DNA of 64,000 nt from an uncultured Anaerolineaceae bacterium (GCA_964354345.1 CAYGZL010000032.1:31152-95151); one strand, 5' to 3'; positions 2,804-40,288 are shown, counted from the first letter of the stretch. A program made the numbers and translations. Notes: generated by a model from the sequence alone, not told the origin.

Positions 2804-2819
2804 AGATGCTCCAAGGTTG

Positions 2820-3629: not shown

Positions 3630-5006
3630 CTAATTCTCCAACAGGCCCAAAACTACAGGAAGAAGCTGCTTCTTTCGCGACACAATCCCTTCTGCCAGGC
3701 GCGTCCCGTCTGTCTGCAATGGGTAAGGTAAGTCTCCTAATTTCGGCGGTTCATTGGCCATCATCAAACGGCTGGAACCGCGTACCACATCCGTGACCAT
3801 TAACATAGCAAAATCTAACCCTCGCCGTTCGCGCAAGCTGTTCAACGCAGTATACAGGCTTGCGCGATGTTCGGCCAACTGCAGCAGATCGGTGACTTCG
3901 ACCTGGGCGATTACAAAGTGGAACCCGCCTGCCTCGTATATTTTTATATCGGTGCTGACAATTTCTTTGGGATCGCGCGCAGATAATCCAGCCCCAGCGC
4001 GCAACACTTTCTCACCAAACGAGCGAATGCTCTCGTTTGCCAACGGAGTGCTGCGCATAAAAGCCCACCGTCCTAATCGTTCAGCAGCCCGGTGGTCACG
4101 CTCCGTGGTGGTTGGAGAGGTGAGGATCAATGTATCCGCCAATAACCCCGCCAGTAATATCCCGGCCAGGGCAGGAGGAGTGCTCAAGCCGGCTTCCTCA
4201 ATTCGCTCTGTTACCAGGGTGCTGGTGCTGCCCACCACGTCGACTGAAAACCTGATCGGAATGTGGGTGGAAGGATTGCCCAGGCGATGATGATCGAGGA
4301 TTTCGATCAACTCTGCTTCTTCCAATGCGCCCAAGGCCTGGCGTGGCTCGTTATGATCTACCAGGATCAAGCGCAGGCGCGGCGGATTAAGTAAATCACG
4401 CTGACGGCAGACGCCCTGATATAAACCAGTGTCATCTACCACCAGGAACTCATCGCCCTCCTCGCGCAAAATACGGCTAAGCGAATCACGAATGCGAGCG
4501 CTGGCAGGGAAGCGAGGCACATTTACATCGCAGGCTTCCTTGCAAGGGATATCTAAAATTTCTGCAATACGCATCTCCTGGCGGCGCGGGTGGGGACCGA
4601 CTAACTGATTGAGGAAGTTGAACAGGCTTGGACCAGTCACCAGGCCATATGGCGTCCCCGCCTTATCACCCGGAACTACGCTTCCGTCATTATCGTTGAT
4701 TACCGGAGCCACGCCCCCTGTCCGGCCCGCAATCGCCCAGGCTTCCCGTAAAGGTTGTTCGGGGGTAGTGGTATCCAAATGACGGGTAACTGAGTTAAAA
4801 CGCGGCGAGGCATCATTAAGCAGCATCGGTGGTTCTAATCCCAGGTACTTGAGCGCCCAGGTGGATTGTGGATTGATCGCCCCGGCTCGCGCGGCGATAA
4901 AATCCTCGCCATCTCTCTCCTTTAGCAACCAGGCATACCCCATCGCCGCTGCAATTGAGTCGGTGTCCGGATTCACATGACCTATGACGTAAATTGGTGC
5001 GGTCAT
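3630..5006 (-). CDS. DHH/DHHA2 phosphoesterase with CBS-domain insert (CBS-type family II inorganic pyrophosphatase-like)
   Basis: DHH motifs GHVNPDTDS, LVDHNE and LDHHRLG. A ~190-aa CBS-like insert follows motif I. The C-terminus is DHHA2-like (LLADTLILTSPTTT, MVTDVV). Confidence 0.8.
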   Translation of the reverse strand: MTAPIYVIGHVNPDTDSIAAAMGYAWLLKERDGEDFIAARAGAINPQSTWALKYLGLEPPMLLNDASPRFNSVTRHLDTTTPEQPLREAWAIAGRTGGVAPVINDNDGSVVPGDKAGTPYGLVTGPSLFNFLNQLVGPHPRRQEMRIAEILDIPCKEACDVNVPRFPASARIRDSLSRILREEGDEFLVVDDTGLYQGVCRQRDLLNPPRLRLILVDHNEPRQALGALEEAELIEILDHHRLGNPSTHIPIRFSVDVVGSTSTLVTERIEEAGLSTPPALAGILLAGLLADTLILTSPTTTERDHRAAERLGRWAFMRSTPLANESIRSFGEKVLRAGAGLSARDPKEIVSTDIKIYEAGGFHFVIAQVEVTDLLQLAEHRASLYTALNSLRERRGLDFAMLMVTDVVRGSSRLMMANEPPKLGDLPYPLQTDGTRLAEGIVSRKKQLLPVVLGLLEN

Positions 5007-6097
5007 TAAGGACCTTCGTTTCGTGCATCGATCAATCTACCATCCAGGGTGTACATCCCTGCCGGGCATTTTCCGATTTGGATGGTATACAAAACCGAAA
5101 GATTCAAATAATCATATTGGCTCGGGTTCGTACTTGGGGCGCTATCGATATCGCATTCCTGAGCTGCCGGGAAATCTTCCCGATGGTCGACAAGATAATT
5201 GATGGCTGACTGCGTCGCGACGATGCGAGGCATATGCCAGCGATCGAATTTCGGGGAGTAAACCGGGCGCAGGAATTTGGGTCGAATAATATAGTCAATT
5301 TCAAAAACACCCTCCAGCGGTACTTTCTCAGGTGTGAGATAAGTCGACAGAGCCCGGCGGCCTTGAACCGTACTTGGCCACATCCCGTAGGGTAAAGCCA
5401 CCAGGTTGCCCAAGCGAGGAATTAGATCCTGGCGCTCGATACGCTTCAGTAGTTGGCGCAAGTAACGGTCATTCATTTTCGCTTCCCATACCACATTCGA
5501 GGTGCTCGTCTGGTCCAGACGAGGATGGGTATAAAAATGGTTAAAGACCTGCGCACCGTGATCGATACACCAGGCAATTGCCCGTGCTAAATCATCCTGC
5601 CAATTGGGATCATCCGGATTGGCGTACAGTTTATCTCCCAGAGCAGCAAACAACGCTATATTGAAACCAAATTCAGGGTGTTCTTGCGAAAACCTCCACA
5701 ACAATCCAATCCCTGTTTGCGGATCAGGCTTGCCAGTTTTCGTCAACGTGATTTGATTATTATAGAAAAGATCATCCATCGTCAGGATCAAAGGCCGGCG
5801 ACCGGTTGGCACGACCATGTTCCCATGCAGCCAGTCCTCTATGGAAACCAGACTGTAACCACTGTCATATAAGGCTTGTAATTGCGCCTGGAAGTCGGAC
5901 AGGCGAACTTTCAGGGATGTAGAATAAGAGCCTGCATTATCTTTCATGAACTGATGATAAGTCAGCACCGGCACACGGGGTTCCTGCACCCAGACAGTTG
6001 CCTTTCCGGTCGGTAAAGAAGCAGCCACGTGATTACCAGGGAGGAGAGCTCCCAGGAGAAGGATCAAACAAATTAACTTAGCCAGTCCGGTTCGCAT
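5006..6097 (-). CDS. Secreted polysaccharide deacetylase-like (NodB-homology) protein
   Basis: Signal peptide MRTGLAKLICLILLLGALLPGNHVAAS. The PVLTYHQF...GYSLVSIEDW...PLILTMDD arrangement is typical of the polysaccharide deacetylase family. Confidence 0.55.
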   Translation of the reverse strand: MRTGLAKLICLILLLGALLPGNHVAASLPTGKATVWVQEPRVPVLTYHQFMKDNAGSYSTSLKVRLSDFQAQLQALYDSGYSLVSIEDWLHGNMVVPTGRRPLILTMDDLFYNNQITLTKTGKPDPQTGIGLLWRFSQEHPEFGFNIALFAALGDKLYANPDDPNWQDDLARAIAWCIDHGAQVFNHFYTHPRLDQTSTSNVVWEAKMNDRYLRQLLKRIERQDLIPRLGNLVALPYGMWPSTVQGRRALSTYLTPEKVPLEGVFEIDYIIRPKFLRPVYSPKFDRWHMPRIVATQSAINYLVDHREDFPAAQECDIDSAPSTNPSQYDYLNLSVLYTIQIGKCPAGMYTLDGRLIDARNEGP

Positions 6098-6102
6098 TAC
6101 GG

Positions 6103-9100
6103 TTACGTAACCTTTAAACCTTCTACCTCGACAGAACTGCTTTTCCGCCCGGAGCGATTATTTCGCAATGCCCGCCAGACTTTCTCCGGCAAGATTGGGT
6201 TATCATCCACCTGCGCGCCACAGGCATCGAATACCGCATTCCCAACCGCGGGCGCCACCCCATCCATCGGAATTTCAGCCACCGCTTTTACCCCAAACGG
6301 ATGGGAAGGCTCAAAAGTTTCAACGAAGATTGTCTCCAACTGTGGCATTTCATGCGCCTGAAAGATGTGATAATCACCCAGATTCCGCTCACGTGCTCGC
6401 CCTAAGTCATCATAGCGCATCTCTTCGCAGATTGCATAACCCAAGGCTTGAGTCATGCCGCCTTCAACTTGCCCGGAGGCAGTCAGCGGATTGACGATCA
6501 TGCCGCCATCCACCGCCATCACCAACCGTTCTACAACGACCTGTCCTGTTTGAGTATCCACGGTCACTTCGGCGAACTGGGCTGCGAAGGGGGGTGGAGA
6601 AACAGGAGACTTAAAAGAGGCTACGGCCATTATCTGCTCCTGGTCGGAGTGATGCAAAGCATTGGTAGCAATTTCAGCCAGGTTCAGGTAACGACCATCG
6701 GGAGCATAAGCGCGACGCTGCGCCAGCCGAACTTCATCTGGCTGGACACGGGTAGCTTCCACCGATAACATTTCATTAAACAGGCGCGCCGCCCGTTCAC
6801 GGATGCGGGCTGCCACCTGCCAGGCAGCCTGGACGACTGCAGTGCCAGATATGTAAGTCGTGCTGGAAGCATAGGCGCCTTTGTCAAATGGTGTGAAATC
6901 AGTATCAGAAGAGTAGACAATCACGTCCTCGACCTGCACCCCCAACACTTCAGCCGCCATCTGAGCCAGCACAGTATCCGAACCGGTGCCCAGATCAGTC
7001 GCCCCGATGAGCAGGTTAAATGAGCCATCATCATTCATTTTGATACTGGCGCCACCCATATCCAGGTAAGGGATCGCCGTGCCTTGCATAACCAGAGCCA
7101 CACCAATGCCACGCCGGAGATAGGGATGGGCTTGCCCGGCAGAGTTCTGACACTGATGCCAGGCAAGGTTTCCAAACTTCTGATCCCAGCCAACTGCAGC
7201 TTTTCCCTGGCGAACACACTCTTCGAGACCACAGGTCTCGATCTTTTCGGGCCGCGGCTCCCGACCTTCGCTCCAGGCGGTGCTGAAAGGATGCACCTGA
7301 CCCACCCGCAAGGTATTTTTCAAGCGGAATTCCAAAGGATCCAGGCCAAGTTTACGAGCGATTTTTTCCATGTGCCGCTCAACTGCCCAATAACCCTGGG
7401 GCACTCCGTACCCGCGATACGCCCCAGCGGGCGGGTGATTGGTGTAGACGATATCCGCATAAAAACGAATATTGGGAATGTCGCCCACATATAAGGCCAT
7501 AGCCTTATGCCCGGTATTTCCAGTCACGGTCAAGGCATGGCAACCATAAGCCCCAGTATCAGCCAGGACAATCATTGCATTGGCGGTCAAGGAACCATCC
7601 CGCTTGACGCCGGTTTTCATGCGGATCCGCATGGGATGACGAGAACGAGAGGCAATAAATTCTTCCTCTCTGGTCATTTCATAAAATACAGGCCTTCCAG
7701 TTGCGATCGTCAAATGAGCCGCGATATCTTCAACCAGAATTTCCTGCTTGCCGCCAAAACCACCGCCGATACGCGGTTTAATGACACGGATCCGCTTTAT
7801 CGGCAATCCCAGGACGGGTGCTAATATCCGCCGGGCATGGAAAGGCACCTGCGTGCTGGTGCGGATCACCAGGCGGTCATCTTCATCCCAATAGGTTATC
7901 ACGACATGGGGTTCAATGTGCGCCTGCTGTACTTTCGGCACGACATATTCATCTTCACAGATAAAATCGGCTTCAGCAAAACCTTTCTCAACCTCGCCAA
8001 TGTCAATCCGGATTTCCGCCGCCAAATTCCGCGAGGGATTTGACCCGGCGAAATTAACATATTCAGGCTCTTCATGCAGGCATGGCGACTCCGGGAGCAT
8101 GGCTTTTCGAGAGTCAAATATAGCTGGTAACTGCTCGTACTCCACTTCGATCAGCAGTAGAGCCTGTTCTGCGATCTCGGGTGTTTCTGCCGCCACAAAA
8201 GCTACCCGATCACCAACAAAACGCACGGTATGATCCAGGGAGAATGTATCCAAAGGTCCCGGAATCGGATCCGATTGGCCAGCGGTCGAGTAAACCACGC
8301 GCGGAATATCCTGCCAGGTGAGTACCGCGGCCACACCCGGCAAAGCGCGCGCCCGGCTGACATCCATCCGCAAGATGCGGGCATGTGCTACTGGACTGCG
8401 GAGAACTTTCGCATACAGCAGGCCACGCTTTTCAAAATCCGCGGTAAAGGCTGGCTTGCCCAGAACGAGTTTTATGCCATCCACCTTTGGTTCGGGTTTT
8501 CCAACTATGCTCCAGGCTTCAGCATGGGGGGCTACCACTACTTTGGGCAGTACTTTGGCAGTAGCGGTGGGTTTTAACCCATAGACACTCTCCTCGTGAC
8601 TCCCATCCACCGCGGGTATTGGTGCAGATGGAAGCCAGACACCTGGCTCTCCGGCGACGACTGGGGTCTCTCCACGCATCACAGCCGCTGCTCGCAATAC
8701 CGCCTGCACCGGCTTCAGGTAGCCCGTGCACCGGCAGAGCACACCCGAGAGGGCTTCGCGCACTTCAGCTTCGGTAGGATTGGGGTTCCGCTCCAACAAC
8801 TCGCATGCCGTCAGGATCATTGCCGGCGTGCAATAGCCACATTGGATTGCTCCATTTTCCACAAAAGCCTGTTGCACGGGGTGCAATCCAGCCGTTGTCT
8901 TCCAACCCTGCACGGGTTGCTGACCAAGTGTCTCGATGGTGCGTATCGTATGCCCTTCAGCCTGAGCTGCCAGGAAAATACAGGAATTCATGGGTGTGCC
9001 ATCCAGTAAAACGGTGCACGCGCCACATTCGCCTGTTTCACACCCGTGTTTAACCCCAAAATAACCCAGACTGCGTAAAACTTTTAGCAGGCAATCCCCA

Positions 9101-9153
9101 GGGGAAACCTCTACGTTATGCAGAACAGAATTAATGTTGAGCTGGAGGATCAT
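6103..9153 (-). CDS. Xanthine dehydrogenase-family enzyme: N-terminal [2Fe-2S] domain fused to the molybdopterin-binding catalytic subunit
   Basis: FeS motifs GCETGECGACTV, CGYCTPAM and CRCTGY, followed by an aldehyde oxidase/XDH a/b-hammerhead and Mo-binding region (IGGGFGGK). I moved the start to ATG 9153 (MILQLNINS...), which makes an ATGA overlap with the upstream FAD subunit. Confidence 0.9.
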   Translation of the reverse strand: MILQLNINSVLHNVEVSPGDCLLKVLRSLGYFGVKHGCETGECGACTVLLDGTPMNSCIFLAAQAEGHTIRTIETLGQQPVQGWKTTAGLHPVQQAFVENGAIQCGYCTPAMILTACELLERNPNPTEAEVREALSGVLCRCTGYLKPVQAVLRAAAVMRGETPVVAGEPGVWLPSAPIPAVDGSHEESVYGLKPTATAKVLPKVVVAPHAEAWSIVGKPEPKVDGIKLVLGKPAFTADFEKRGLLYAKVLRSPVAHARILRMDVSRARALPGVAAVLTWQDIPRVVYSTAGQSDPIPGPLDTFSLDHTVRFVGDRVAFVAAETPEIAEQALLLIEVEYEQLPAIFDSRKAMLPESPCLHEEPEYVNFAGSNPSRNLAAEIRIDIGEVEKGFAEADFICEDEYVVPKVQQAHIEPHVVITYWDEDDRLVIRTSTQVPFHARRILAPVLGLPIKRIRVIKPRIGGGFGGKQEILVEDIAAHLTIATGRPVFYEMTREEEFIASRSRHPMRIRMKTGVKRDGSLTANAMIVLADTGAYGCHALTVTGNTGHKAMALYVGDIPNIRFYADIVYTNHPPAGAYRGYGVPQGYWAVERHMEKIARKLGLDPLEFRLKNTLRVGQVHPFSTAWSEGREPRPEKIETCGLEECVRQGKAAVGWDQKFGNLAWHQCQNSAGQAHPYLRRGIGVALVMQGTAIPYLDMGGASIKMNDDGSFNLLIGATDLGTGSDTVLAQMAAEVLGVQVEDVIVYSSDTDFTPFDKGAYASSTTYISGTAVVQAAWQVAARIRERAARLFNEMLSVEATRVQPDEVRLAQRRAYAPDGRYLNLAEIATNALHHSDQEQIMAVASFKSPVSPPPFAAQFAEVTVDTQTGQVVVERLVMAVDGGMIVNPLTASGQVEGGMTQALGYAICEEMRYDDLGRARERNLGDYHIFQAHEMPQLETIFVETFEPSHPFGVKAVAEIPMDGVAPAVGNAVFDACGAQVDDNPILPEKVWRALRNNRSGRKSSSVEVEGLKVT

Positions 9154-9953
9154 ACCAACTCCAAATCTGCCAGGCAGCGCTGCACGAGCGTACCAGCAGC
9201 TGCCAGGCGATATTCTGCAGAAGCCCATTCGTCACCAGCCGTGCTATAGGCACTCTCCGCCGCGAGTTGGGCGCTATCCGCCACAGTGCCGTCCAGAACC
9301 AGGATTGGCATTGCACCATAACCTCCCAGGACAAGGCGAGTGCGACCAGAAGGCCAGGTCGCCATGGCAGCGCACACAATCGGCCAATCCGCTGGTGTGC
9401 GTGCAATCGCATGAAACGCCAGACGTGAATTTAGCGATAAGGAAACCTGGCTAATCAACCTGCCCCGTAAGAGCTCCGCCCGCAATGGCAGCAAATCACC
9501 GAGGGATACATCGGAACTAATCGCTTCCCCGCCAGATAAGAGGGTCATAGTTGCATCCAAGGCCAGCATGGCGACTGTAAAGGATGATCGCCCGTCTGCT
9601 GCCACCAATGTTCCTGCCACAGTGGCTACCTGGCGTAAGTTATAGGTCGCTTCTCGTTCGATAACAACTTGGAGCGATTTATACAGCAAAAGTTGTTCGG
9701 GTGAGGTAACCTGTTCCCCCCGACCCCAGGTTAACAATGTCTGTAAAGTAAGCGTCGCACCAATATCAAGCTTATTGCCGCGACGATGTAATGTATTCAG
9801 GCCTAACGCCTGTAAATCCACGACCGCCAGTGGGGAAGTGGAAGGTCGGTTCAACACCGATCCACCCCCCATCGGAACCGTGACCGGTTCCGTGCGAGCT
9901 AACAAAGCCAGTGCAACAGCAAGTGATTCCGGACGGTGATATTCAAGAATCAT
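9150..9953 (-). CDS. Molybdenum-hydroxylase FAD-binding (CoxM-like) subunit
   Basis: MILEYHRPESLAVALALLAR...PMGGGSVL... fits the CO dehydrogenase flavoprotein pattern. The 69 N-terminal codons of ORF 9150..10160 overlap the thioesterase gene and look non-coding, so I trimmed to ATG 9953. Confidence 0.8.
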   Translation of the reverse strand: MILEYHRPESLAVALALLARTEPVTVPMGGGSVLNRPSTSPLAVVDLQALGLNTLHRRGNKLDIGATLTLQTLLTWGRGEQVTSPEQLLLYKSLQVVIEREATYNLRQVATVAGTLVAADGRSSFTVAMLALDATMTLLSGGEAISSDVSLGDLLPLRAELLRGRLISQVSLSLNSRLAFHAIARTPADWPIVCAAMATWPSGRTRLVLGGYGAMPILVLDGTVADSAQLAAESAYSTAGDEWASAEYRLAAAGTLVQRCLADLELV

Positions 9954-10473
9954 AGACTTTCCAACCAATCGCTTCGAGATCAATCCCATCAACGATACCA
10001 GGTGGTAAATCAACCAAAACCGCTTCTCCCTCTGCGAGCAGCGTTCCATCCTGGCTAAAGATAGCGCCGTGGGCCGATGCCATCCGCCCCCGGTCTGGAC
10101 CAGCTTTACCGACCAACCGTAAAGGTTGTCCGACTGGAACGTTTTTCCGATAACGAACATCTAACCTGGCAGTAAACATAAAGCGCGGCTTTTGTGGATC
10201 ACTTCCCATATGCGACCGACCAGTGACTTCATCCAACATCGCAGCAACAATTCCTCCATGCACCACGCCTGGATACCCCTGATACTGTTCGGGCACTGTA
10301 TATTCAGCCGTTACCTCGCCTGGCGCGCTTTCAATAAATTTCAGATGTAAACCAAATGGATTGTTAACCCCACAAACAAAGCAGTGTTGAGAATTAGGTT
10401 GGCGTGATGACAAGACAGACTCCTGGTGAAGATTGTGAATCATCAATTCCGAGTGAAATTGCTGGTTATCCAC
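9943..10473 (-). CDS. PaaI/4HBT-type hotdog-fold acyl-CoA thioesterase
   Basis: Motif PGVVHGGIVAAMLDE. It is the first gene of the minus-strand operon and overlaps the FAD subunit start by 11 nt. Confidence 0.8.
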   Translation of the reverse strand: MDNQQFHSELMIHNLHQESVLSSRQPNSQHCFVCGVNNPFGLHLKFIESAPGEVTAEYTVPEQYQGYPGVVHGGIVAAMLDEVTGRSHMGSDPQKPRFMFTARLDVRYRKNVPVGQPLRLVGKAGPDRGRMASAHGAIFSQDGTLLAEGEAVLVDLPPGIVDGIDLEAIGWKVYDS

Positions 10474-10727: not shown

Positions 10728-10868
10728 GACCGCTTTACCAGGTGGTATCGCCTGGCTTCAGTGTGTTTCAAAGCGGTTGACGAGGTTGAGTGTTCCTACC
10801 TGCAAAGACAAGTCACCGGATAGATAATACCCAGGAGAGTGGTATAACCGATTGTTACCTTAAGATTC
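10728..10868 (+). ncRNA. glmS ribozyme: Candidate glmS ribozyme/riboswitch in the glmS leader
   Basis: AAGCGGTTGACGAGG at 10771..10785 matches, from memory, the conserved glmS ribozyme core. A CGCCTGG hairpin arm lies at 10749..10755 and CGGAT at 10817..10821. The position, directly upstream of glmS, is right. I could not fit P3/P4 by eye. Confidence 0.4.
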
Positions 10869-10881
10869 ATGGAGGGAACCC

Positions 10882-12741
10882 ATGTGTGGAATCGTTGGCT
10901 ACATCGGGCCACGTGACGCTACCCCAATCATCCTGAACGGGCTCAGGCGTTTGGAATACCGGGGGTATGACTCGGCTGGCTTGGCCGTGTTACAAAATAA
11001 CAAAATCGAAGTCCGCCGGGATGTCGGTAAACTTTCCCGTCTGGCCACATTGGTAGATGAGTCGCCCGTCCACGGCAACCTGGGCATCGGCCATACCCGT
11101 TGGGCGACCCACGGCGCTCCCAGTGCTCGCAATGCTCATCCCCATCTAGGTATGACCGGTGAGGTAGTGGTTGTACATAATGGCATAGTTGAGAACTTCC
11201 TCGAACTGCGCGATGAACTGTGCTGCGAGGGAGCCGTATTCAAGTCAGAGACGGATACGGAAGTTATCGTTCACCTGATCGAACGTTATCTGTCGTCCGA
11301 ATCTGGATTAGTGGAAGCGGCCCGCCAGGCCTTCAACCACTTGAAAGGCGCGCATGGGATCGTTGTATTCTCGTCCCGTGAACCAGATAAAATCGTTGCC
11401 GCTCGGATCGGCAATGCTGGCGGAGTAACCATCGGTCTGGGTGAAGGCGGGGGCATCGAGGGAGAGATGTTTGTCGCCTCAGACCTGCCTGCGATCCTGG
11501 ATCACACTCGGCAGATGGTTTTTCTGGAATCACGCCAAATGGCAGTCATCCGGCAGAATGGACTGGAGATTCAAACCCTGGAAGGGAAGCCGGTTCGCTA
11601 CAAGGTACACCATATTCCTTGGGATCCAATCTCAGCCGAAAAAGGAGAGTACCGGCATTTCATGGCGAAAGAAATCCATGAGCAGGTGCGCTCGTTGACC
11701 GATACGATAGGCGGACGGGTAGACTTCGAGAATGGTTCCGGCATCCGCCTGCCTGAGCTCAACCTGACGCGTGAGTTCGCCCAACGCCTACAGAAAATCT
11801 TTATCACCGCTTGCGGCACCGCCTCCCACGCCGGGATGGTTGGTAAAGTGCTGATCGAACACATTGCTCGTGTACCAACCGAGCTCCAGATTGCTTCGGA
11901 ATTCCGTTACAGCGACCCAATCGTAGACGTTAATACAGCCGTTCTAGCGATCAGCCAATCTGGAGAGACTGCCGATACGTTGGCTGCGATGGAGGAAGCC
12001 CGGCGCAAAGGCGCAACCTTGTGGTCCATCGTCAACGTCATTGGTTCCCAGGCGATGCGAATTGCTGATGGGTATATCTCGATGCAGAGCGGTCCAGAAA
12101 TCGGAGTCGCCTCGACTAAAGCCTATACAGCCCCGCTGGTTGATCAATATATGCTGGCCATCCTGCTGGCTGATCAGCGGGGTGTGATCGATAAAATCCG
12201 CCGCAAGCAATTAATCTCCGACTTACGCCTGATTCCCAACCTGGCCGGACGCTGCCTTGACCGTGAAGCCGAGGTTGAAAAGGTAGCCCGGGCGTTAATG
12301 AACACCAGCCATTGCCTGTACCTGGGACGCGGCATCAATATGCCTACTGCATATGAAGGGGCACTCAAACTGAAGGAGATATCCTACATCCATGCGGAAG
12401 GATATCCGGCTGGTGAAATGAAACATGGTCCCATCGCTCTGATTGATCGTGAGATGCCCGTCGTCGTCATCGCGCCACGGGATCCCTGGTATGAAAAGAT
12501 GCTCAGCCAGGTGGAACAGACTCGCTCGCGCGGTGGGATGGTCATTGCGGTGGCTACCGAGGGCGATACAACAATTGCCAACCTGGCTGACCACGTGTTA
12601 TGGGTGCCTGAGACGCCATGGCTACTCAGCCCCGTAATCACAGTCATCCCTTTGCAGTTACTGGCTTATCACATTGCCGCCCTGCGCGGCCTGGATGTGG
12701 ATCAACCACGTAACCTGGCCAAATCGGTGACGGTTGAATAA
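10882..12741 (+). CDS. glmS: Glutamine--fructose-6-phosphate aminotransferase
   Basis: MCGIVGYIG N-terminal nucleophile, two SIS domains and the C-terminal ...LAKSVTVE. GGAGGG RBS 5 nt upstream. Confidence 0.97.
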   Translation: MCGIVGYIGPRDATPIILNGLRRLEYRGYDSAGLAVLQNNKIEVRRDVGKLSRLATLVDESPVHGNLGIGHTRWATHGAPSARNAHPHLGMTGEVVVVHNGIVENFLELRDELCCEGAVFKSETDTEVIVHLIERYLSSESGLVEAARQAFNHLKGAHGIVVFSSREPDKIVAARIGNAGGVTIGLGEGGGIEGEMFVASDLPAILDHTRQMVFLESRQMAVIRQNGLEIQTLEGKPVRYKVHHIPWDPISAEKGEYRHFMAKEIHEQVRSLTDTIGGRVDFENGSGIRLPELNLTREFAQRLQKIFITACGTASHAGMVGKVLIEHIARVPTELQIASEFRYSDPIVDVNTAVLAISQSGETADTLAAMEEARRKGATLWSIVNVIGSQAMRIADGYISMQSGPEIGVASTKAYTAPLVDQYMLAILLADQRGVIDKIRRKQLISDLRLIPNLAGRCLDREAEVEKVARALMNTSHCLYLGRGINMPTAYEGALKLKEISYIHAEGYPAGEMKHGPIALIDREMPVVVIAPRDPWYEKMLSQVEQTRSRGGMVIAVATEGDTTIANLADHVLWVPETPWLLSPVITVIPLQLLAYHIAALRGLDVDQPRNLAKSVTVE

Positions 12742-12863
12742 AACAAGTCCTAATGACAGCACATATAAATTCGCCCTCGCTGGTCATGATAAAATTTAAA
12801 TAATCTTTGCATATCAATTATTAACAGGAGGACACAATTAACACCACCCCAAAACGCGGTGCT

Positions 12864-13724
12864 TTGTTTTGGCTTGGATTGATTGGATTAATTGGCGGTG
12901 GGATTGGAGAGATCTTATCGCTCGCGCTGATCTTCTTGTCCGGCCGCGGAATTTTGAATAACAGCGTCGTCCCCATACCACCGAATATCGCCCGCGATAC
13001 TCCTACCATTTTCATAAATACCCTACCCAGCCAAATACCTTCGCCCACGATACCCTCCCTGGCAACAAACACTATTCTGGCTACTGAAGCAAAACAGGCA
13101 GCCACAGATACTCCTATCCCACCTACGATGACCGTCACAAGCGCGGCTCAAAATAACTTCAATGATACCTTTTCTAATATAAATAGTGGTTGGGGAGAGC
13201 AACATGACCAGGTTTTTGATAAAGGTTACTTCCAGACAAGCACTTATCGAATGGGGATTAAAGCCCCTCAGCAACTGCTAATTGCCATATCCCCTGATAA
13301 TTTAGCCAAACCTATCCAAAATATAGTTATCTCAGTTAGAGGACGACAGAATCTGCCTGGAGTGGGTGCATTTGGGGTTATCTGCAGAATGCAGGATGAG
13401 CAAAATTACTATAGCGCGATGATCTCTGGAGATCAATTCCGGATTGGTAAGATGATCAACGGCAACTACACCAGCCTGACAGATCCGGCCTGGCAACCGC
13501 TCCCGGATACTGTAACCGATCAAGATGGTTACGATACAATCGATTTTAGTTGTATCGATTCCTTTATTGTGCTTCAAGTAAACGGGATTGGCGCTGCGCA
13601 TGTCACTGATGATAACCTCACCCAAGGCGCTGTAGGTTTGATTGCCATTGCTGGAAAGGATCAGGGGAAGGATGGATACTACACCCTGGCTTTTTTTGAT
13701 GACTTTTCTGTATACATCCCATAA
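12864..13724 (+). CDS. Membrane-anchored hypothetical protein with a Pro-rich linker and a beta-rich (LamG/concanavalin-like?) ectodomain
   Basis: TM helix LFWLGLIGLIGGGIGEILSLALIFL, then a P/T-rich linker, then a ~190-aa domain (FNDTFSNINSGWGE...YYTLAFFDDFSVYIP). The track start is TTG. An ATT at 12837 lies 5 nt after AGGAGG and is an alternative. Confidence 0.6.
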   Translation: MFWLGLIGLIGGGIGEILSLALIFLSGRGILNNSVVPIPPNIARDTPTIFINTLPSQIPSPTIPSLATNTILATEAKQAATDTPIPPTMTVTSAAQNNFNDTFSNINSGWGEQHDQVFDKGYFQTSTYRMGIKAPQQLLIAISPDNLAKPIQNIVISVRGRQNLPGVGAFGVICRMQDEQNYYSAMISGDQFRIGKMINGNYTSLTDPAWQPLPDTVTDQDGYDTIDFSCIDSFIVLQVNGIGAAHVTDDNLTQGAVGLIAIAGKDQGKDGYYTLAFFDDFSVYIP

Positions 13725-13743
13725 ACATAGATGAAGATATTCA

Positions 13744-16700
13744 ATGGGGCGAGGCAATATGGTTCGAAAATCATCCAAAACCAACCGCTATCCTGGATTT
13801 AGCCAAGCCACTTTTTTCCATCGGTTAATTCTTTATCTGATTGGCGTGATACTCGTACTGACCAATGCGGCCATGCCTGCCCGCGTTCTGGCAATCCCCC
13901 TGCTTAGTGATCTTCCAGCACAGACAGTCAATCAAGATGAATCTGGCGCCTGGCAATTGGTGAGTAATGACCAATTTGATACCTGGCGAGGAGATAAATT
14001 CCATGGAAAAGAGTCGGAATACACGCCCATCTACGAAAACAACACAGTTGGGGCTGTTTATACCGAATATAACATCCGCTTTACCCCAGACGCACCAAAG
14101 AAAATTAGCCAACAACTCTACGGCGTCTGCACCTGGAACTGGGAAAACGGGGCAGTACCAAGCGACGTTATTCCGGGAAAGAGTTATCCATTTAATTTAT
14201 CGGTTAGTGCTGACATAACCGGCCCTTTTCCAATGATGACCACTGTGGACGGATACACCGAGTCCCTCAGTCAGAATGCAAACAAAGGAGATAGCATCGC
14301 TTACACCCAGGTTTACATCGATCCACAAGGAACAGATCAAAGATCAGGTACTAATGAGATCAATGCATCATTGAGTTTACCAACCGGGCAAAGTGATGGA
14401 GAACAACGTCGTCTCAATCTAACCTGCAAAGTGGATCATGTCACCGTTACTATGCAGTATCTCTATCGGTGGGGCAAAACCGCCTGCCGTGCCACACTCG
14501 CTTTGCCGGATAAAATGGAACCTGGTAAACCATTCTTCCCACTGGCCACCGTGGTTGATAATAATAACCAACCGGTGAAACCCCAGAAGGAAACCTGGTA
14601 TTATAACGGCGTCAACACCAGCAGTATGGTTTGGGATGGGAAAGCCGCTACGGTGGATTATGAGTATATCTGTCCCCTTGATAATCAAACCAGAAAGGTA
14701 AGCATAAATATTCCACCCAACGAAGGAGATCAAGGGTGGTTGGTTGTCGTCGGTGAGATAGGAGCAGTGGTTTCGGCTGCAGCGATGTTAGCCGGTGGAG
14801 CCGCCTTGATCGCGGCCAACCGCCAAAAAGGTCCAAAAAAGGGGACACAAACTTCCCAATATATCTTACAGTTGAATAAAAACTATCTGGAAATACGCCC
14901 CAAAGAGAGTATATCATTAGCCATCCAGGCCTGGCGCGTCACACCCGAGGGAGTGCCTGTGGCTGCGCCAGAAGCCACCATTCAGGTGATTTTGCCTCCA
15001 TCAGCTGCTGGCTTGGTCGCGACACCTGCTGTAGGGCAAGGAACTCTCGATTGCGTGTTTACTATCCCTAAGCCTACCGAGTGCGCCCAACTGACCGTGA
15101 CGGTTACTGCTTCAGCCGCTGGTAAAAAAGTCGAGAAACAAATACAGGTACGAATCATACCGTTGTATGAACTGGCATTGACCTGGAGGGATCCATCACA
15201 AAAAGCACTCAAACCGGGCGAAGCGGTATGGGCACTAGCAAAACTGACTGCTACACCAATTGATCCACAATCTCCACCAGATGTGCTGGCTAAACGGATT
15301 AGCATTAGTGTCAAAGGACCAAACAGCGCCTTAATTAAGCTGCAAACACCCCTCCCTCAAGCTCAGGGTCCGTTTATAAAGAATGGTGTGGTATGGATAC
15401 CAGTCACATCTGTGCAGCCGCCACCTGGGATGGCGCTACAACCTGGCAATCCCAGCCTGGCGGCTGAATTCGTAGAGGGAACCCAACGCTTGGAGGCGCG
15501 TCTGCCCATTGGTTTTGCAGACCAGGTCTTAGGCGCCTGGGTGCAAGGGAAAAGCCAGGCTGACGTTATTTACAATAAACGGTTGGATACCCCAGCCTGG
15601 GATTTCGCAGAAATTGTCATGTTTTTTCATACATCCGAAGACAATAAAACCCCAGTTGCTCCCTCGGTAAAGTATAAATTTAATCAACCACCCATTGAAG
15701 CTGATCCACCCGTCCTCGAAGTAAGTGAATTTTATCCTCACGCTCAGGATCAATATACTCTCAAGGTTCGTTTACTCCCTGGCATTGAATTGGAACAATA
15801 TTTCGGTCGATATTTAACGGAGCGTCAGGGTGTCATCCAGGTCAAGATAACAGCCAAAGCAGAAGATGGAAAGCCTTTTACAGCGCAGGTAGCCTACCGA
15901 CTCCGACCCCAGCTAGAGCTGTTTGCCCACGGAAGCGATATCAGAGGCCGCCAATACAAAAACCTGGCTCTGGGATCGGTTGAGTTTGTCGCCGATGGTG
16001 ATGACCAAATGGCTATCCTTGTGGGTTGCTGCCGGACGGATCAGTCAGATCCAAGAGACGCCGATCAGATCGATCAGGTTGACCCAACCTGGTGGAGTTA
16101 TCAAGCCAGCCTACAAGGTGCGTCTGATAGTAATTTCCACACTTACCCCAATCAAGAAGGAATTGATGAAGAGCGTTCACTGATTGTCCAATCAAAAAAA
16201 CCACTCCTTTATAAAGCGGGAGGCGAGAGAGAAATACTATCTCTACATCTTGAAGGTAACTCAACGAGGCTATTGCCAGGGAATTATTTACCAGGTAATT
16301 TGAAGTTTGATTTGGAATTAAAACCGCGTTTTCCCGATTTACGCGCCTGGGTGGTGCCGGGGAAAGAACGTGGTACTTCTGAAGTGTGGATGCTGGTCTT
16401 CCTGGATCGCAATACCAGTCAGTTGCTAGGCGACACCATCTTGAAAGTAAAAACCAGCTCGATTTTTACTGCAAGCGGTAACGGAAGCGCGCCTTCACTG
16501 GTAACTCGCGACCTTCAAGACCAGACATTTGTTATCACTGGCTCGGATGGATCTGAGCAGGTCGATTTATTGTACAGGGACCTGACCTGGAGCAATTATC
16601 AAGAGGCGCTCTTCATCATATCCTGTAGCATAACCAATCGGTCAGGTGATCAAGAAAGCGACCCGGTGAAAGTATCGGTTAATGTCAAGGAGAATATCAA

Positions 16701-17460
16701 GCGTTTACTGGCTGACTTATTCGAGCGCGCTGATTTACTCAAGCTCAACAACCCTTACTGGCAAAACCGGTCTCTCGGTTTGAGTAACCTGATTGATCTG
16801 ACAGTTTATCGACCATTCGTGCGGGGACCGATATGGAATGCTTGTGAAATGCTTTCGGGGAATGAATGGAAGTATGCTAAAGGTGATAAGAAGGTGAAAT
16901 TCGCCCATGATTATGTGTGTTCGGAATTCCGAGATCGTATTGCCGAATGGTTGATCAAACGGCGCCACTATCAGCAGGGTCAACCAGATAAAATAAATGA
17001 CATTGCAAAAATGAATGGGATCGAATTTGAACATTTTGTCATTGCAAACGGATTGCACAACTACGAAGCCCTCTTCCTTTCAGGGATGGAACCAACTGAT
17101 GACCCGCGCGGTCTGGACCCCTGGTGGAAACAGCATTGGCAGGATCAGGCTTACTTTGACCCGGATCAATTGGTTAGTAATAACTGGGAAAGATACTATT
17201 GTGCAGAAACAGGCGCCTGGTTGTCGGTTAGCTTAATCCCTGTCGTTGCCCTCGGATTAGCCACTGGTGGAGGAACGCTAATTGCCATCATTCCTCTGCT
17301 CGGACCGATCATTGCGGCTTATTCTGCGGCCACTACGGGTGAAGTAGCATCCGGTAGGGTTTATTCTCCCAAAGACGGTTATAAATGGTTCAAGAGTACG
17401 CCTTATGTCGGTCGCCAGATATTTATTAATAATTGGACGACCGCCAATCCGCATGGATAG
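13744..17460 (+). CDS. Large (1238 aa) multi-pass membrane protein of unknown function
   Basis: N-terminal signal anchor (LILYLIGVILVLTNAAMPARVLA). Central TM (VVVGEIGAVVSAAAMLAGGAALIAA) followed by NRQKGPKKG. Ig-like beta-rich middle region. Two C-terminal TM helices (WLSVSLIPVVALGLATGGG / TLIAIIPLLGPIIAAYSAA). Alternative start ATG 13759, preceded by GAGG. Confidence 0.75.
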   Translation: MGRGNMVRKSSKTNRYPGFSQATFFHRLILYLIGVILVLTNAAMPARVLAIPLLSDLPAQTVNQDESGAWQLVSNDQFDTWRGDKFHGKESEYTPIYENNTVGAVYTEYNIRFTPDAPKKISQQLYGVCTWNWENGAVPSDVIPGKSYPFNLSVSADITGPFPMMTTVDGYTESLSQNANKGDSIAYTQVYIDPQGTDQRSGTNEINASLSLPTGQSDGEQRRLNLTCKVDHVTVTMQYLYRWGKTACRATLALPDKMEPGKPFFPLATVVDNNNQPVKPQKETWYYNGVNTSSMVWDGKAATVDYEYICPLDNQTRKVSINIPPNEGDQGWLVVVGEIGAVVSAAAMLAGGAALIAANRQKGPKKGTQTSQYILQLNKNYLEIRPKESISLAIQAWRVTPEGVPVAAPEATIQVILPPSAAGLVATPAVGQGTLDCVFTIPKPTECAQLTVTVTASAAGKKVEKQIQVRIIPLYELALTWRDPSQKALKPGEAVWALAKLTATPIDPQSPPDVLAKRISISVKGPNSALIKLQTPLPQAQGPFIKNGVVWIPVTSVQPPPGMALQPGNPSLAAEFVEGTQRLEARLPIGFADQVLGAWVQGKSQADVIYNKRLDTPAWDFAEIVMFFHTSEDNKTPVAPSVKYKFNQPPIEADPPVLEVSEFYPHAQDQYTLKVRLLPGIELEQYFGRYLTERQGVIQVKITAKAEDGKPFTAQVAYRLRPQLELFAHGSDIRGRQYKNLALGSVEFVADGDDQMAILVGCCRTDQSDPRDADQIDQVDPTWWSYQASLQGASDSNFHTYPNQEGIDEERSLIVQSKKPLLYKAGGEREILSLHLEGNSTRLLPGNYLPGNLKFDLELKPRFPDLRAWVVPGKERGTSEVWMLVFLDRNTSQLLGDTILKVKTSSIFTASGNGSAPSLVTRDLQDQTFVITGSDGSEQVDLLYRDLTWSNYQEALFIISCSITNRSGDQESDPVKVSVNVKENIKRLLADLFERADLLKLNNPYWQNRSLGLSNLIDLTVYRPFVRGPIWNACEMLSGNEWKYAKGDKKVKFAHDYVCSEFRDRIAEWLIKRRHYQQGQPDKINDIAKMNGIEFEHFVIANGLHNYEALFLSGMEPTDDPRGLDPWWKQHWQDQAYFDPDQLVSNNWERYYCAETGAWLSVSLIPVVALGLATGGGTLIAIIPLLGPIIAAYSAATTGEVASGRVYSPKDGYKWFKSTPYVGRQIFINNWTTANPHG

Positions 17461-17474
17461 AAAAGATTGGCAAG

Positions 17475-18503
17475 ATGAAACACTTACCTGAATTTACAAT
17501 GCGCTGTGAAGAGATTCCAATCACCCCTGGCATCGCCTCATGTCTGAATGAATTGTTTCAGGCATTGGCAATGATCCAATCGGGTGAAATACCAATGGCT
17601 AACAAAGGATTTATCGAAGGATTAGCAGCCTTAGCCGGTCTCTTTACAGGATCACCGAATGCAGCAGGTGGGACTTCCTGGAGCGCCAAATACTACCCTT
17701 CCTCTTCAGGCAATGGCGGGTTGCTAAAACTGACAGAACCGGCAGCGAGTCAAAGTCTGGTTGTTTCCCGCGATCGTCATGGAGCGCTCTATAACGGGAT
17801 ATGGTCGCGATTAGATGAAAACAATTGGGCAATTTTGCTTTTTGAGGTTGTGCAATCGCCGTCAGGTTATCAATTGGAAGTCAAAGGGGGTGAAATAGAA
17901 TGCAGCCTCCCCCTGGGAGAAAGCCTGCCTGGTTTCATATGGGCTACATCCAGGGATGTTTTGAATTTTGTTCCCGAATGGTTGGCAGGCAATGCAGACG
18001 CCTTGCCCCCTTCGGAAAAGCAGCAACCGGCTCAACCGTCCCCACGATCTGAATCGCCTGCTGTTCTTATTTCACAGCGGGTGGTCATTCCACCACAGCC
18101 AATGTGCACTAATTGTGGCGCTCCCCTGTTGCCAGAGATGCGCTTCTGCGGGCAGTGTGCCAAACCTGTAAACGGGGCACCAGCCCAGGTCACACTGCCA
18201 CCACCTTCACCCAGACCAACACCCGATTTCTACCTGATGGATAAAACGACTGGGCGATTATTCCCTCTCGTCAAACGGCTGACGATTGGACGCAACCCAG
18301 ATAATGATCTCAAACCAGATGATCCTCTTCTGTCACGCCAGCATGCCATTCTTGAACCAGTTGCCAGCGGTTGGCAAATCACGGATCTGAATTCAACCAA
18401 TGGCGTATATGTCAACGGCGAACGTATCATCAAGCCAACCCCCATACACCCCAACGATGAAATAAAAGTCGGCGCAACTTATTTTCTCGTAAAATCTACA
18501 TAA
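17475..18503 (+). CDS. Zinc-ribbon and FHA domain protein
   Basis: CTNCGAPLLPEMRFCGQC is a CxxC-x10-CxxC ribbon. The C-terminal FHA signature is TIGRNPDNDL...LSRQHAIL...ITDLNSTNGVYVNGERI. The track start TTG 17433 overlaps the upstream gene by 28 nt. ATG 17475 is 14 nt after its stop. Confidence 0.85.
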   Translation: MKHLPEFTMRCEEIPITPGIASCLNELFQALAMIQSGEIPMANKGFIEGLAALAGLFTGSPNAAGGTSWSAKYYPSSSGNGGLLKLTEPAASQSLVVSRDRHGALYNGIWSRLDENNWAILLFEVVQSPSGYQLEVKGGEIECSLPLGESLPGFIWATSRDVLNFVPEWLAGNADALPPSEKQQPAQPSPRSESPAVLISQRVVIPPQPMCTNCGAPLLPEMRFCGQCAKPVNGAPAQVTLPPPSPRPTPDFYLMDKTTGRLFPLVKRLTIGRNPDNDLKPDDPLLSRQHAILEPVASGWQITDLNSTNGVYVNGERIIKPTPIHPNDEIKVGATYFLVKST

Positions 18504-23031: not shown

Positions 23032-23958
23032 ATGTCAGCAATAACGGATTTTTTTCGTCGATTACTCAAACGTCGTGCGGCTCAAAAACCCGGTACATCC
23101 ACCAGTACGCTCCGGTTTGAAGAAACGCCATCGCAACTGGCATCGACAATCATCGAAGTAGCCCCTGGTGCTGGGGAGCAATCAGTTTATCAAACACTCC
23201 GGGTAGCCACTGCGCAATCGGTGGGTAAGCAACGGATACATAACGAAGACGCGCTCTTCACCTGGACACCACAAACTGGGGATGATTACCAGGAACCAAT
23301 TGGTTTCTATGTCATTGCAGATGGAATGGGTGGTCAAGCACACGGAGACCTGGCCAGCCAGCTGGCTATCCAGGTGGTTAGCAAGCGCATAAAAGAGGCC
23401 ATTAATAGCAATTGGCAAAATGCAGATCAAACCCCGACGGATGATACAGTCAAAGAATTTCTGATAAACACGGTCAAAGAAGCCCATCAGGCAGTCGTTC
23501 ATGATGTTCCGGGAGGCGGAACTACGCTTACCGCTGTACTGATCCTGGGCAGGCAGATGATTATTGCGCATGTCGGTGATACTCGCTTATATCAGATCAG
23601 CCCTGACAAATCCATACAAATCTTGACCCGCGATCATTCGTTGGTGAAACGCCTGGTCGAACTCCATCAGATCACTGAAGAAGAAGCTGTAACTCATCCT
23701 CAGCGCAATGTTCTATACCGGGCGTTAGGCCAGAGCGAGCCCCTAGAGGTTGATTTGAAAGTAATCCCGCTGCCCGACTGCGGTTATTTACTTTTATGCA
23801 CAGATGGCTTGTGGGGTGTTGTTCAGGAATCCGAGATGGTCAGGTTGGTATGCGAGTCATCTACTCTCGACCTGGCGTGCCAACACCTCATCGCGGCAGC
23901 AAACGAGGCTGGAGGACCAGACAATATCTCCGTCATCCTGGTTGCTTTGCCAGCTTGA
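23032..23958 (+). CDS. PP2C-family Ser/Thr protein phosphatase
   Basis: NEDALF, VIADGMGGQAHGDLAS, GGTTLTAVLI, AHVGDTRLY, LLCTDGLW, GGPDNISVILV. Confidence 0.93.
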   Translation: MSAITDFFRRLLKRRAAQKPGTSTSTLRFEETPSQLASTIIEVAPGAGEQSVYQTLRVATAQSVGKQRIHNEDALFTWTPQTGDDYQEPIGFYVIADGMGGQAHGDLASQLAIQVVSKRIKEAINSNWQNADQTPTDDTVKEFLINTVKEAHQAVVHDVPGGGTTLTAVLILGRQMIIAHVGDTRLYQISPDKSIQILTRDHSLVKRLVELHQITEEEAVTHPQRNVLYRALGQSEPLEVDLKVIPLPDCGYLLLCTDGLWGVVQESEMVRLVCESSTLDLACQHLIAAANEAGGPDNISVILVALPA

Positions 23959-24023: not shown

Positions 24024-24761
24024 ATGACCGATACTCGATTCCGAGGCCGGCGGATTCTGGTAGTAGATGATGAAGAACGCATGGTGCGTTTTATCCGGTT
24101 GAACCTGGAGCATGATGGCTTTGAGGTGGTTGAGGCTTTCACCGGTAACCAGGCCATAAATCGGGTCCGCAGCAACCTGCCAGATTTGATCTTATTGGAC
24201 ATTATGCTCCCTGACTTAGATGGCTTTGAAATATTACGGATTATCCGCGAAGTAAGCACAGTTCCGGTGATTATGTTAACTGCCAAGGGGGAAGAAGAGG
24301 ACCGGGTGCGCGGATTAGAATTGGGCGCAGACGACTATATTACCAAACCATTTAGCCCGCGTGAACTGGTCAGTCGTGTACGGGCTGTCTTACGCCGAAC
24401 CGAGCTGACCAGCGGCGGCACCCACGGTTTAATTGTGGTTGACGAGCATCTTAAGATTGATTTCGATCGTCACGAAGTCTGGTTGGACGGTAAACTTGTT
24501 CAACTCCGTCCGACAGAATATCGGTTACTCTACCATCTGGTACAAAATACAGGGTGGGTCATCTCTCACGACCAACTGTTGGCGAAGGTCTGGGGATATG
24601 AGTACCGGGACGAACCCCATTATGTGCGCTTATATATCAACTACCTGCGCAAGAAGTTGGAACAGGATCCCGCAAATCCTAAATATATCATGACCGAGCG
24701 CGGCGCCGGCTACCGTTTCGTTGATTTTCGCCGGGACAAATTGGACAAATCCACTAAATAA
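24024..24761 (+). CDS. OmpR-family response regulator
   Basis: Receiver domain (ILVVDDEE, LILLDIMLPDLDG, LTAKG) plus a winged-helix output (RPTEYRLLYHL, GAGYRF). Confidence 0.93.
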   Translation: MTDTRFRGRRILVVDDEERMVRFIRLNLEHDGFEVVEAFTGNQAINRVRSNLPDLILLDIMLPDLDGFEILRIIREVSTVPVIMLTAKGEEEDRVRGLELGADDYITKPFSPRELVSRVRAVLRRTELTSGGTHGLIVVDEHLKIDFDRHEVWLDGKLVQLRPTEYRLLYHLVQNTGWVISHDQLLAKVWGYEYRDEPHYVRLYINYLRKKLEQDPANPKYIMTERGAGYRFVDFRRDKLDKSTK

Positions 24762-24827
24762 AGAATTTCAACCGCCTTGTCATTCAACAAGGGATCGGCT
24801 ATGCGCTTAACAAAGGAGAGAAATATA

Positions 24828-25481
24828 GTGGCAAAACAGCGGATTTTATTGGTAGATGACCACGAAGTTGTACGCCTGGGTCTAAAAGCACTGCTTGAGC
24901 GACACCCCCACTTCGAAGTCGTCGCCGAAGCCAGCACAGCCCGAGAAGCCGTCGAACAGGTCGAGGCGCTCAAACCCGATGTCGTAGTCATGGATATTCG
25001 CTTGCCGGGGGGATCCGGGATTGAAGCCTGCGAAGAAATCGCCGATAAATACCCCAATTCAAAAGTTATTATGCTGACATCCTATGCCGAAGATGAAATG
25101 CTGTTTTCAGCCATCCGCGCTGGAGCTTCTGGTTACGTACTCAAACAAATTGGCGGCGAGGACCTCGTCAGGGCAATTGAGGCAGTGGGACGGGGAGAAG
25201 CCTTGCTCGATCCTGCCGTCACGCAACGGATCTTTCAGGAAGTCCGTAAAGCCGCTAAAGAAGAGGAAGCTTCAGCTTTCTCTGGTTTAACCCAGCAGGA
25301 GAAACATGTGCTGTTGCTAGTTTCCGAAGGCAAAACGAATCGGGAAATTGCTAAAGCTTTATTCCTGGGTGAGGGCACTGTCCGTAACTATGTCAGTAGC
25401 ATCCTCTCTAAATTAGGGGTGAGTAACCGCGCTGAAGCAGCCGCTTACGCGGTTGAGCATAACTTGCGCGACTATCTCTAA
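24828..25481 (+). CDS. NarL/LuxR-family response regulator
   Basis: Receiver domain ([23 protein letters not shown]) plus a LuxR HTH ([22 protein letters not shown]...[15 protein letters not shown]). GTG 24828 has AAAGGAGAG 7 nt upstream. The track start 24777 lacks an RBS. Confidence 0.9.
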
Positions 25482-38596: not shown

Positions 38597-38676
38597 GATA
38601 CGCCTATAACCAATAGACTATTTAATCCATACTCGATCTACCGTTATCCTCGTTATAAAACGAAGGAGTGTTGAAA

Positions 38677-40203: not shown

Positions 40204-40258
40204 GCTGTTAATGCATTACAGATCCGGTTAATGCTCTTGATTATTTAAGCAGCCAAAT

Positions 40259-40288
40259 GGGGAAAAGAGTCTTTCAGCTCTTTTCCCC
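40259..40288 (+). terminator. Strong intercistronic hairpin after the SBP gene (attenuator or mRNA-stabilising element)
   Basis: GGGGAAAAGAG-8 nt-CTCTTTTCCCC: an 11-bp perfect stem with no U-tract. Confidence 0.5.

Follow-up and report, generated by a model that had tools for sequence, protein, structure and literature searches.

A recurrent g2–g3N gene pair with a candidate Cys-His-Asp domain, seen in a three-gene block of an uncultured Anaerolineaceae bacterium

Introduction

In mycobacteria, the FHA protein FhaA (Rv0020c) docks on phosphorylated MviN, and the related adaptor FipA/FhaB corresponds to Rv0019c. An FHA domain is also attached to a membrane complex in TagH/Fha1 of the type VI secretion system (with PpkA/PppA) and in the cytoplasmic domain of YscD of the type III secretion system. 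LapD is a transmembrane receptor that senses inside the cell and controls LapG, a transglutaminase-like Cys protease acting in the periplasm, and the domain of Pseudomonas aeruginosa TgpA (6g49) is likewise periplasmic. The present analysis concerns three genes, g1, g2 and g3 (positions 12864-18503, plus strand), in a 64,000-nucleotide stretch of DNA from an uncultured Anaerolineaceae bacterium, which is called the window throughout. The large membrane protein g2 ends in a domain, designated CHD, with a near-invariant Cys, His and Asp, and g3 carries an N-terminal domain (g3N), a Zn ribbon and an FHA domain. Judged against Pfam, NCBIfam, PADLOC and PDB, the block is rated as a kind of system that has not been described before, with the g2 and g3N families as its core.

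The block resembles each of the described systems in part. Like the soluble or membrane-proximal FHA adaptors of mycobacteria, g3 is a protein with a C-terminal canonical FHA domain encoded beside a large polytopic membrane protein on which it would act, and control by a Ser/Thr kinase and PP2C is a further possible likeness. However, only the FHA domain is matched, and neither the N-domain of g3 nor its Zn ribbon is related to FhaA or FipA; g2 is unrelated to MviN, the operon holds no kinase, and FHA is optional in the family. With LapD-LapG the block would share a membrane receptor coupled to envelope remodelling by a Cys-His-Asp enzyme, but the direction would be reversed, LapD and LapG are separate proteins, there is no homology, and no cyclic di-GMP domains occur here. 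A search of the openly accessible literature on FHA, Zn ribbon and membrane neighbourhood returned no description of the family.

Results

Conservation and predicted fold of the g2 C-terminal domain

The CHD domain occupies residues 972-1156 of g2 (nt 16657-17211) and was found in 123 of 154 g2-family proteins. Its candidate triad, recognized by conservation, comprises C1059 (nt 16918-16920), H1105 (nt 17056-17058) and D1125 (nt 17116-17118), with spacings of 46 residues from Cys to His and 20 from His to Asp. Among 102 aligned copies, H1105 is kept in all, D1125 in 101 and C1059 in 98. The four exceptions to Cys are Ser (three copies) and Asp (one copy), and the predominance of Ser among them supports a nucleophile better than a metal ligand. 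Residues N984, G1028 and Q1130 are also kept in 102/102 copies, an MNG motif in 100-101, and E/D1094 is invariant as well.

The AlphaFold model of CHD built from a 67-sequence alignment has a predicted local distance difference test score (pLDDT) of 95 and a predicted template modelling score of 0.90, as compared to a pLDDT of 40 from a 4-sequence alignment. In the confident model, helix 88-103 has the Cys at its N-terminus, strand 134-141 starts with the His, and the Asp comes just past strand 151-153. The order Cys, His, Asp, with the Cys at a helix N-terminus and the His and Asp on successive strands, is that of transglutaminase/papain-like enzymes, the respective conservation being 96, 100 and 99%. 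This arrangement and similar spacings are shared with TgpA and with the putative cysteine protease 3isr, in which the domain is also tethered by flanking transmembrane (TM) segments. Unlike both of these, CHD has seven helices ahead of its small sheet and displays no detectable sequence, profile or fold similarity to them; unlike the periplasmic domain of TgpA, it is predicted to be cytoplasmic.

CHD is a domain without a detectable relative among solved structures. Foldseek of the model against PDB gave a best E of 0.94 and did not recover a thiol-enzyme fold, no match was obtained in BFVD, and hmmsearch with CHD against PDB sequences returned none. Pfam had no match at E<=10 to any of the 67 CHD sequences, Transglut_core (PF01841) and clan CA included, and hhalign of the 67-sequence profile against the transglutaminase core from 3isr and 6g49 gave a probability of 0.15%. 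On the strength of the model and of residue conservation, it is proposed with moderate confidence that CHD works like a Cys-His-Asp enzyme, and family membership is not claimed. The near-invariant Cys, His and Asp suggest that g2 is probably an enzyme. A previous sequence-only reading of this DNA had recognized no known enzymatic family for g2; this stands as regards family matches, but it passed over the probable catalytic character of the C-terminal domain.

The rest of g2 is equally devoid of family matches. The protein has no Pfam or NCBIfam match at E<=1, and none at that threshold to adhesin, S-layer or Ig-like repeat families (Big, Invasin, SLH), for which five close homologues gave only E>=0.017. 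When 46 diverse g2-family members were compared with Pfam, no meaningful domain was found in any of them, marginal matches to Invasin_D3, SprB and GH2_C5 being confined to single relatives. These matches are the sole hints of the possible Ig-like character that the sequence-only reading had given to the middle of g2.

Membrane topology of g2

The gene g2 (13744-17460, ATG start) encodes 1238 residues. Hydropathy and alignment place a signal anchor (TM1, residues 28-50) behind a basic N-terminus and ahead of a predicted extracellular N-domain (residues 51-331; together nt 13825-14736), which contains four invariant Cys. Within this domain lies a Cys-pair repeat of about 75 residues (residues 248-325, nt 14485-14718), recognized by alignment and by duplicated tblastn matches; its copy number is one in the window and 2-4 in relatives. 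A second TM segment by hydropathy (TM2, residues 332-358, nt 14737-14817), followed by the basic stretch NRQKGPKKG, leads to a middle region that is predicted to be cytoplasmic and was delimited by profile coverage patterns (residues 359-971, nt 14818-16656). CHD follows, and then a hydrophobic TM hairpin (residues 1157-1196) with a 42-residue tail (nt 17212-17457). The hairpin is a predicted tether of CHD to the membrane. Most relatives have one or two TM segments past CHD; none is present in P0004 and in the L010 type.

The orientation of g2 is indicated by its charge distribution. In 59 family members, the 15 residues past TM2 contain on average 4.29 Lys and Arg as compared to 0.61 in front of it, and the count is greater after TM2 than before in 58 of them. 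Dozens of relatives of about 500-600 residues begin at profile position ~388 without any N-terminal TM segment, their sole TM segment following CHD. This charge bias, the short forms and the pairing with a soluble g3 bearing domains of intracellular types together lead to the prediction that g2 residues ~359-1156 are cytoplasmic, which would leave outside only about 280 residues of g2 and 190 of g1. The TM layout of g1 and g2 drawn in the sequence-only reading, including NRQKGPKKG and the C-terminal hairpin, agrees with hydropathy; its description of g2 as an envelope protein does not fit most of the chain, given the predicted location of this large inner part.

The modular build of g2 is evident from its relatives. 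Modules of the middle region are separate genes or missing in some of them, and many split the g2 architecture into separate genes at profile position ~388 (L013 3-2290, P0074-P0152 and P0149-P0163). In such cases the C-terminal half consists of a module, CHD and a TM segment, and the N-terminal half of 340-400 residues comprises the signal, ectodomain, TM segment and first module. Distant members of the family carry unrelated sequence in place of the N-terminal ectodomain and retain the inner part; this exchange of the ectodomain with conservation of the inner part is a receptor-like pattern. In one relative, P0005, the ectodomain contains an insert of about 370 residues (alignment A1, columns ~420-790). 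A C...H...DPW-like motif was noticed in it by eye (YRCGGYQ...GGHQAVVIY...VLDPWMNQ), yet the CHD profile gave no match to it, and this lead was rejected.

Size, distribution and gene order of the family

An exhaustive HMMER search with a profile of g2 residues 326-1238 against representative clusters at 50% identity retrieved 338 clusters for the part of g2 past TM2 at E<=1e-3, of which 122 had E<=1e-30. Only four g2 relatives, six g1 relatives and a single g3N relative came out of a word-indexed search of 5.8 billion proteins. The close relatives sit in metagenome-assembled genomes of Anaerolineaceae.

For the analysis of synteny, 43 loci were collected, a 14-sequence alignment being used in the metagenome scan, and every open reading frame (ORF) in them was compared with the g1, g2, g2 C-domain, g3N and FHA profiles. 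Of the 31 distinct loci with downstream sequence, 15 (the window and 14 others) have a g3N gene directly 3' of the g2-family gene, often with an overlap of 4-16 nt, and the pairing extends to relatives that are only 31-37% identical in CHD. A g1 homologue lies directly 5' of the g2-family gene in 8 distinct loci. Strict synteny of all three genes was considered and rejected, as FHA is missing from all first-set relatives and g1 and g3N hardly ever share a locus. The co-occurrence in relatives that the sequence-only reading had proposed to check holds for the pairs g1-g2 and g2-g3N, but the three-way combination is confined to the window. Its broader proposal, that the block is a candidate undescribed system, has survived the refuting condition set in that reading: profile and fold searches gave g2 no place among known families, and there is synteny.

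Two further gene associations were noted in the collected loci. A conserved protein of 98-102 residues with two TM segments follows g2 or the g2-g3N pair in L004 (6291-6587), L034 (7312-7608) and L009 (1458-1766); it has the pattern MKK..AI.LI...CP.L.FG...ASSPE...VIPVVV.L.TLRMARKK and no counterpart in the window. In a distant clade (L022 6068-7571, L024 354-1955, L028 2709-3413), the place of g1 upstream of the g2-family gene is taken by unrelated membrane proteins of two types, namely a polytopic protein with an N-terminal PF13240 ribbon and a protein of 232-234 residues with a soluble N-domain and several TM segments.

g3 and the g3N family

The ORF of g3 runs to 18503 from either ATG 17475 or TTG 17433. 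It leaves a gap of 14 nt behind g2 in the first case and overlaps it by 28 nt in the second; the gap is likelier, since homologues of g3 begin at the residue matching ATG 17475. The product has no TM segment by hydropathy. It consists of g3N (17475-17984), a Pro-rich linker, a Zn ribbon (Zn_Ribbon_1, PF13240; 18105-18167) and an FHA domain (PF00498; 18282-18473). The ribbon, CTNCGAPLLPEMRFCGQC, has the form CxxC-x(n)-CxxC and scores 26.3 bits (cut-off 25, E 5.9e-6). The FHA domain, residues 284-347 of the TTG-start translation, scores 70.2 bits (cut-off 20.7, E 2.1e-19), and the residues that bind phosphothreonine are present as Gly-Arg in TIGRNP, Ser-x-x-His in LSRQHA and Asn-Gly in STNGVYVNG. 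The ribbon and the canonical FHA domain named in the sequence-only reading are confirmed by these scores.

Against whole-protein families the score of g3 is low. The best NCBIfam match of its FHA domain is FhaB/FipA (NF049868, E 1.7e-17). Matches to TagH (TIGR03354, 30.4 of 120.25 bits), GltG (32.4 of 650) and OdhI (37.6 of 200) are all beneath the equivalog cut-offs and restricted to FHA. Pfam Yop-YscD_cpl (E 1e-13) and NCBIfam VI_FHA (E 3e-7) also match the domain, but the shortfall against TagH sets g3 apart from FHA components of type VI and type III secretion systems, and no other secretion-system gene is present in the window or the related loci.

g3N itself has no Pfam or PDB relative. 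Recognition of its family required iteration: the protein downstream of g2 in L013 was missed by a 3-sequence g3N profile and matched at E 2.6e-27 by an iterated profile of 16-18 sequences. The domain is found alone (L005), with one Zn ribbon (L009), with two (L022, L024, L027, L029, L033, L041, L043), with FHA and three Zn ribbons (L021), with FHA (L032), with two repeats that look GYF-like by eye (L026) and, in the window, with one Zn ribbon and FHA. FHA is a recurrent but optional add-on, the constant parts being g3N and, usually, the Zn ribbon. The FHA reader put forward as part of the system thus exists in g3, but the conserved partner is g3N with its ribbons. The L026 protein (10765-11901) ends in two copies of a repeat of about 45 residues (AWYYLD..G...GP......L..W......L.PDT.VWN..L..WV), which resembles the GYF_2/DUF4339 type.

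g1 and its exchange between lineages

The gene g1 (12864-13724, TTG start) encodes 286 residues of a type II membrane protein. A TM segment by hydropathy (residues 6-24, nt 12879-12935) is followed by a Pro/Thr-rich linker (12936-13151) and a conserved ectodomain of about 190 residues (13152-13721), as judged from seven database homologues and further ones in the collected loci, which are 30-50% identical. The protein has no Pfam or NCBIfam match at E<=1, and for the ectodomain, which the sequence-only reading had called jelly-roll-like, 10 homologues gave no Pfam or PDB-sequence match except for the Zn ribbon. Upstream of TTG, the in-frame codons read INTTPKRGA-LFWLGL (window 12825-12864), in which KRG is a juxtamembrane motif conserved among g1 homologues, and a perfect AGGAGG stands at 12826-12831, 5 nt ahead of ATT 12837. 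The conserved codons in frame and the adjacent AGGAGG suggest that the true start may be the non-canonical ATT 12837, giving 295 residues.

In L001, L004 and L007, which are without g3, the cytoplasmic N-terminus of the g1 homologue carries a PF13240 Zn ribbon, and in the window the ribbon is on g3 and none is on g1. This distribution suggests that a Zn ribbon may be required at the inner face and may be supplied by either partner. The g1 of the window is nearest to that of L010/L012-type loci (47-49% identity), and the L010-type g2 is the most distant from the window g2 (32%). The window g2 is nearest to that of L001 (54%), yet the g1 proteins of these two loci are just 30% identical. Such incongruent similarities suggest that the g1 module has been exchanged between lineages.

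Neighbourhood and composition of the block

The three co-directional genes are separated by 19 nt (g1/g2) and 14 nt (g2/g3), lying between glmS (SIS and GATase domains) on the 5' side and a convergent gene for a glcF-like Fe-S protein, which is followed by glcE/glcD-like FAD oxidase subunit genes. This is the arrangement that the sequence-only reading had described, and the AT-richness it had noted by eye is real but mild. The GC content is 48.0% in the block, 50.5% in the window and 53-55% in the flanking genes; GC content at third codon positions (GC3) is 0.446-0.463 in g1, g2 and g3, the three lowest values among 44 window genes and about 1.2-1.6 standard deviations beneath their mean (0.522, standard deviation 0.048).

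A PP2C gene (23032-23958) and a gene for a 373-residue Ser/Thr kinase (27272-28393) lie 4.5-9 kb downstream, past the glcDEF-like operon, together with response regulators of OmpR type (24024-24761) and LuxR type (24777-25481). This group is a possible source of the phosphothreonine read by the g3 FHA domain. In related loci, the L021 pair has two GT4 glycosyltransferase genes and two FemAB-family genes upstream in the same direction, and an M23 peptidase gene lies downstream in L009.

Elsewhere in the window, the region upstream of glmS (1334-10160) holds two gene sets of the xanthine-dehydrogenase/CO-dehydrogenase type (FAD_binding_5, Fer2_2, MoCoBD), which belong to ordinary metabolism. Four successive plus-strand genes at 38668-43204 have GC3 of 0.52-0.67 and unusually low GC content at first codon positions. 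Three of them have the highest GC3 in the window, and the ORF at 38668-40203 is overlapped by long antisense ORFs.

Discussion

The conservation of CHD, the predicted topology of g2 and the repeated g2-g3N pairing are tentatively interpreted as an outside-in membrane module, in which a conserved thiol-enzyme effector in the cytoplasm, together with variable ectodomains and an adaptor to Ser/Thr phospho-signalling, would serve, probably, envelope homeostasis. Also in favour of it are the occurrence of FHA in three distinct lineages (those of the window, L021 and L032), the placement of the Zn ribbon on either g1 or g3, the envelope-related neighbours and the nearby PP2C and kinase genes. The disulfide-type N-terminal ectodomain of g2 would be exposed outside, accompanied here by the ectodomain of g1. 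The chain would then recross the membrane into about 800 cytoplasmic residues ending in CHD, held at the inner face by the hairpin, with its Cys, His and Asp in an arrangement like that of papain/transglutaminase-type thiol hydrolases and transferases. The cytoplasmic part of g2 is the proposed binding site of the g3 N-domain, and through the Zn ribbon and the FHA domain the complex would reach further partners, in this case phosphothreonine made by Ser/Thr kinases. An extracellular or envelope cue sensed outside could in this manner switch a membrane-proximal thiol enzyme inside, under the gating of phosphorylation, and cell-envelope homeostasis is the likely setting.

Several observations weigh against such a module. 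The topology of g2 is a prediction, and the conserved Cys, His and Asp could equally bind metal. FHA occurs in only 3 of 15 g2-adjacent partners, g3N is missing from half of the g2-family loci, and g1 and g3N are found together only in this window. No kinase is encoded within the three-gene operon, and the envelope context is hinted at by three loci only (glmS here, L021 and L009). A promoter and terminator scan of the block gave results at chance level only, and no expression evidence was found for the region, part of which occurs in only two freshwater-sediment metagenome runs, both of DNA.

Possible metal binding by these residues, to which the invariant E/D1094 could be added as a ligand, fits a different interpretation, in which g2 serves the cell-division or cell-wall machinery as a membrane scaffold rather than as an enzyme, CHD binds metal or a partner, and g3 recruits the complex to phosphorylated division or wall proteins in the manner of FhaA/FipA. 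It agrees with the lack of a hydrolase fold match for CHD, with FhaB/FipA as the top NCBIfam match of the g3 FHA domain, with glmS, FemAB/GT4 and M23 genes as neighbours and with PP2C and a kinase close by. However, the FipA match is far under its cut-off (63.9 versus 125 bits) and covers FHA only, FHA is optional in the family, Ser replaces Cys in most of the exceptions as expected of a nucleophile rather than a ligand, and the placement of the Cys, His and Asp in the model is that seen at the catalytic sites of thiol enzymes; a scaffold is considered unlikely. The large size and apparently beta-rich sequence of g2, the variable number of Cys-pair repeats, the Pro/Thr linker and ectodomain of g1 and the marginal Invasin_D3, SprB and GH2_C5 matches would suit a surface structure with g2 mostly outside, such as an adhesin, an S-layer anchor or a cell-cell junction of filamentous Anaerolineae, which comes near to the envelope proteins of the sequence-only reading. 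As only residues 51-331 of g2 are predicted outside, the positive-inside bias is almost universal, the short forms have no signal peptide, the cytoplasmic partner g3 is closely spaced or overlapping and matches to adhesin or S-layer families stay below all thresholds, this interpretation is given little credence.

An anti-phage or conflict system, horizontally acquired and built of a membrane sensor and a protease-like effector, is similarly improbable. Conflict systems are known to contain FHA and Zn-ribbon domains, the block has the lowest GC3 of the window, and its patchy distribution is accompanied by shuffled modules, as evident from the incongruent g1 and g2 similarities and the variable accessory domains of the partner. 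Against it, none of the three proteins matches PADLOC-DB at E<=0.01, collections of 72,556 plasmids and 50,697 phages contained no relative, the surroundings consist of housekeeping genes rather than a defence island, and a conserved putative effector with a variable ectodomain is the reverse of polymorphic toxins. Chance adjacency of three unrelated hypothetical genes is scarcely credible: the full order g1-g2-g3 is indeed restricted to this window, but the pairwise linkages recur down to 31% identity, in relatives the stop and start codons often overlap, and the gaps here are very short. The synteny data already contradict it.

The outside-in module may also be stated in a more far-reaching form, which is regarded as doubtful. 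The g2 family would then make up a new thiol-enzyme class, cytoplasmic and tethered to the membrane, with a fold that is absent from solved structures, and would form with g3N a new outside-in system widespread in uncultured Chloroflexota-like bacteria. In this system, an activity that modifies proteins or lipids covalently at the inner face of the membrane would be switched by ectodomain sensing and gated by phosphothreonine. As the sequence-only reading had held for g1 and g2, the g1 ectodomain and g2 lie outside known families, and the same applies to g3N: all three have no model in Pfam (2025 copy), NCBIfam 20 or PADLOC and no PDB relative. Even with a wrong mechanism, the g1 ectodomain, the g2 modules and g3N merit family models, being blank in current libraries. 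If the interpretation as an outside-in module is true, an unnamed, conserved two-protein core would join variable extracellular domains to an intracellular enzyme of unseen fold, and in several lineages this core would also be tied to Ser/Thr phospho-signalling. It would offer a testable catalytic triad, give a bacterial FHA domain a defined client in vivo, and bring a new architecture for signalling or effector action to a phylum with poorly understood envelope biology.

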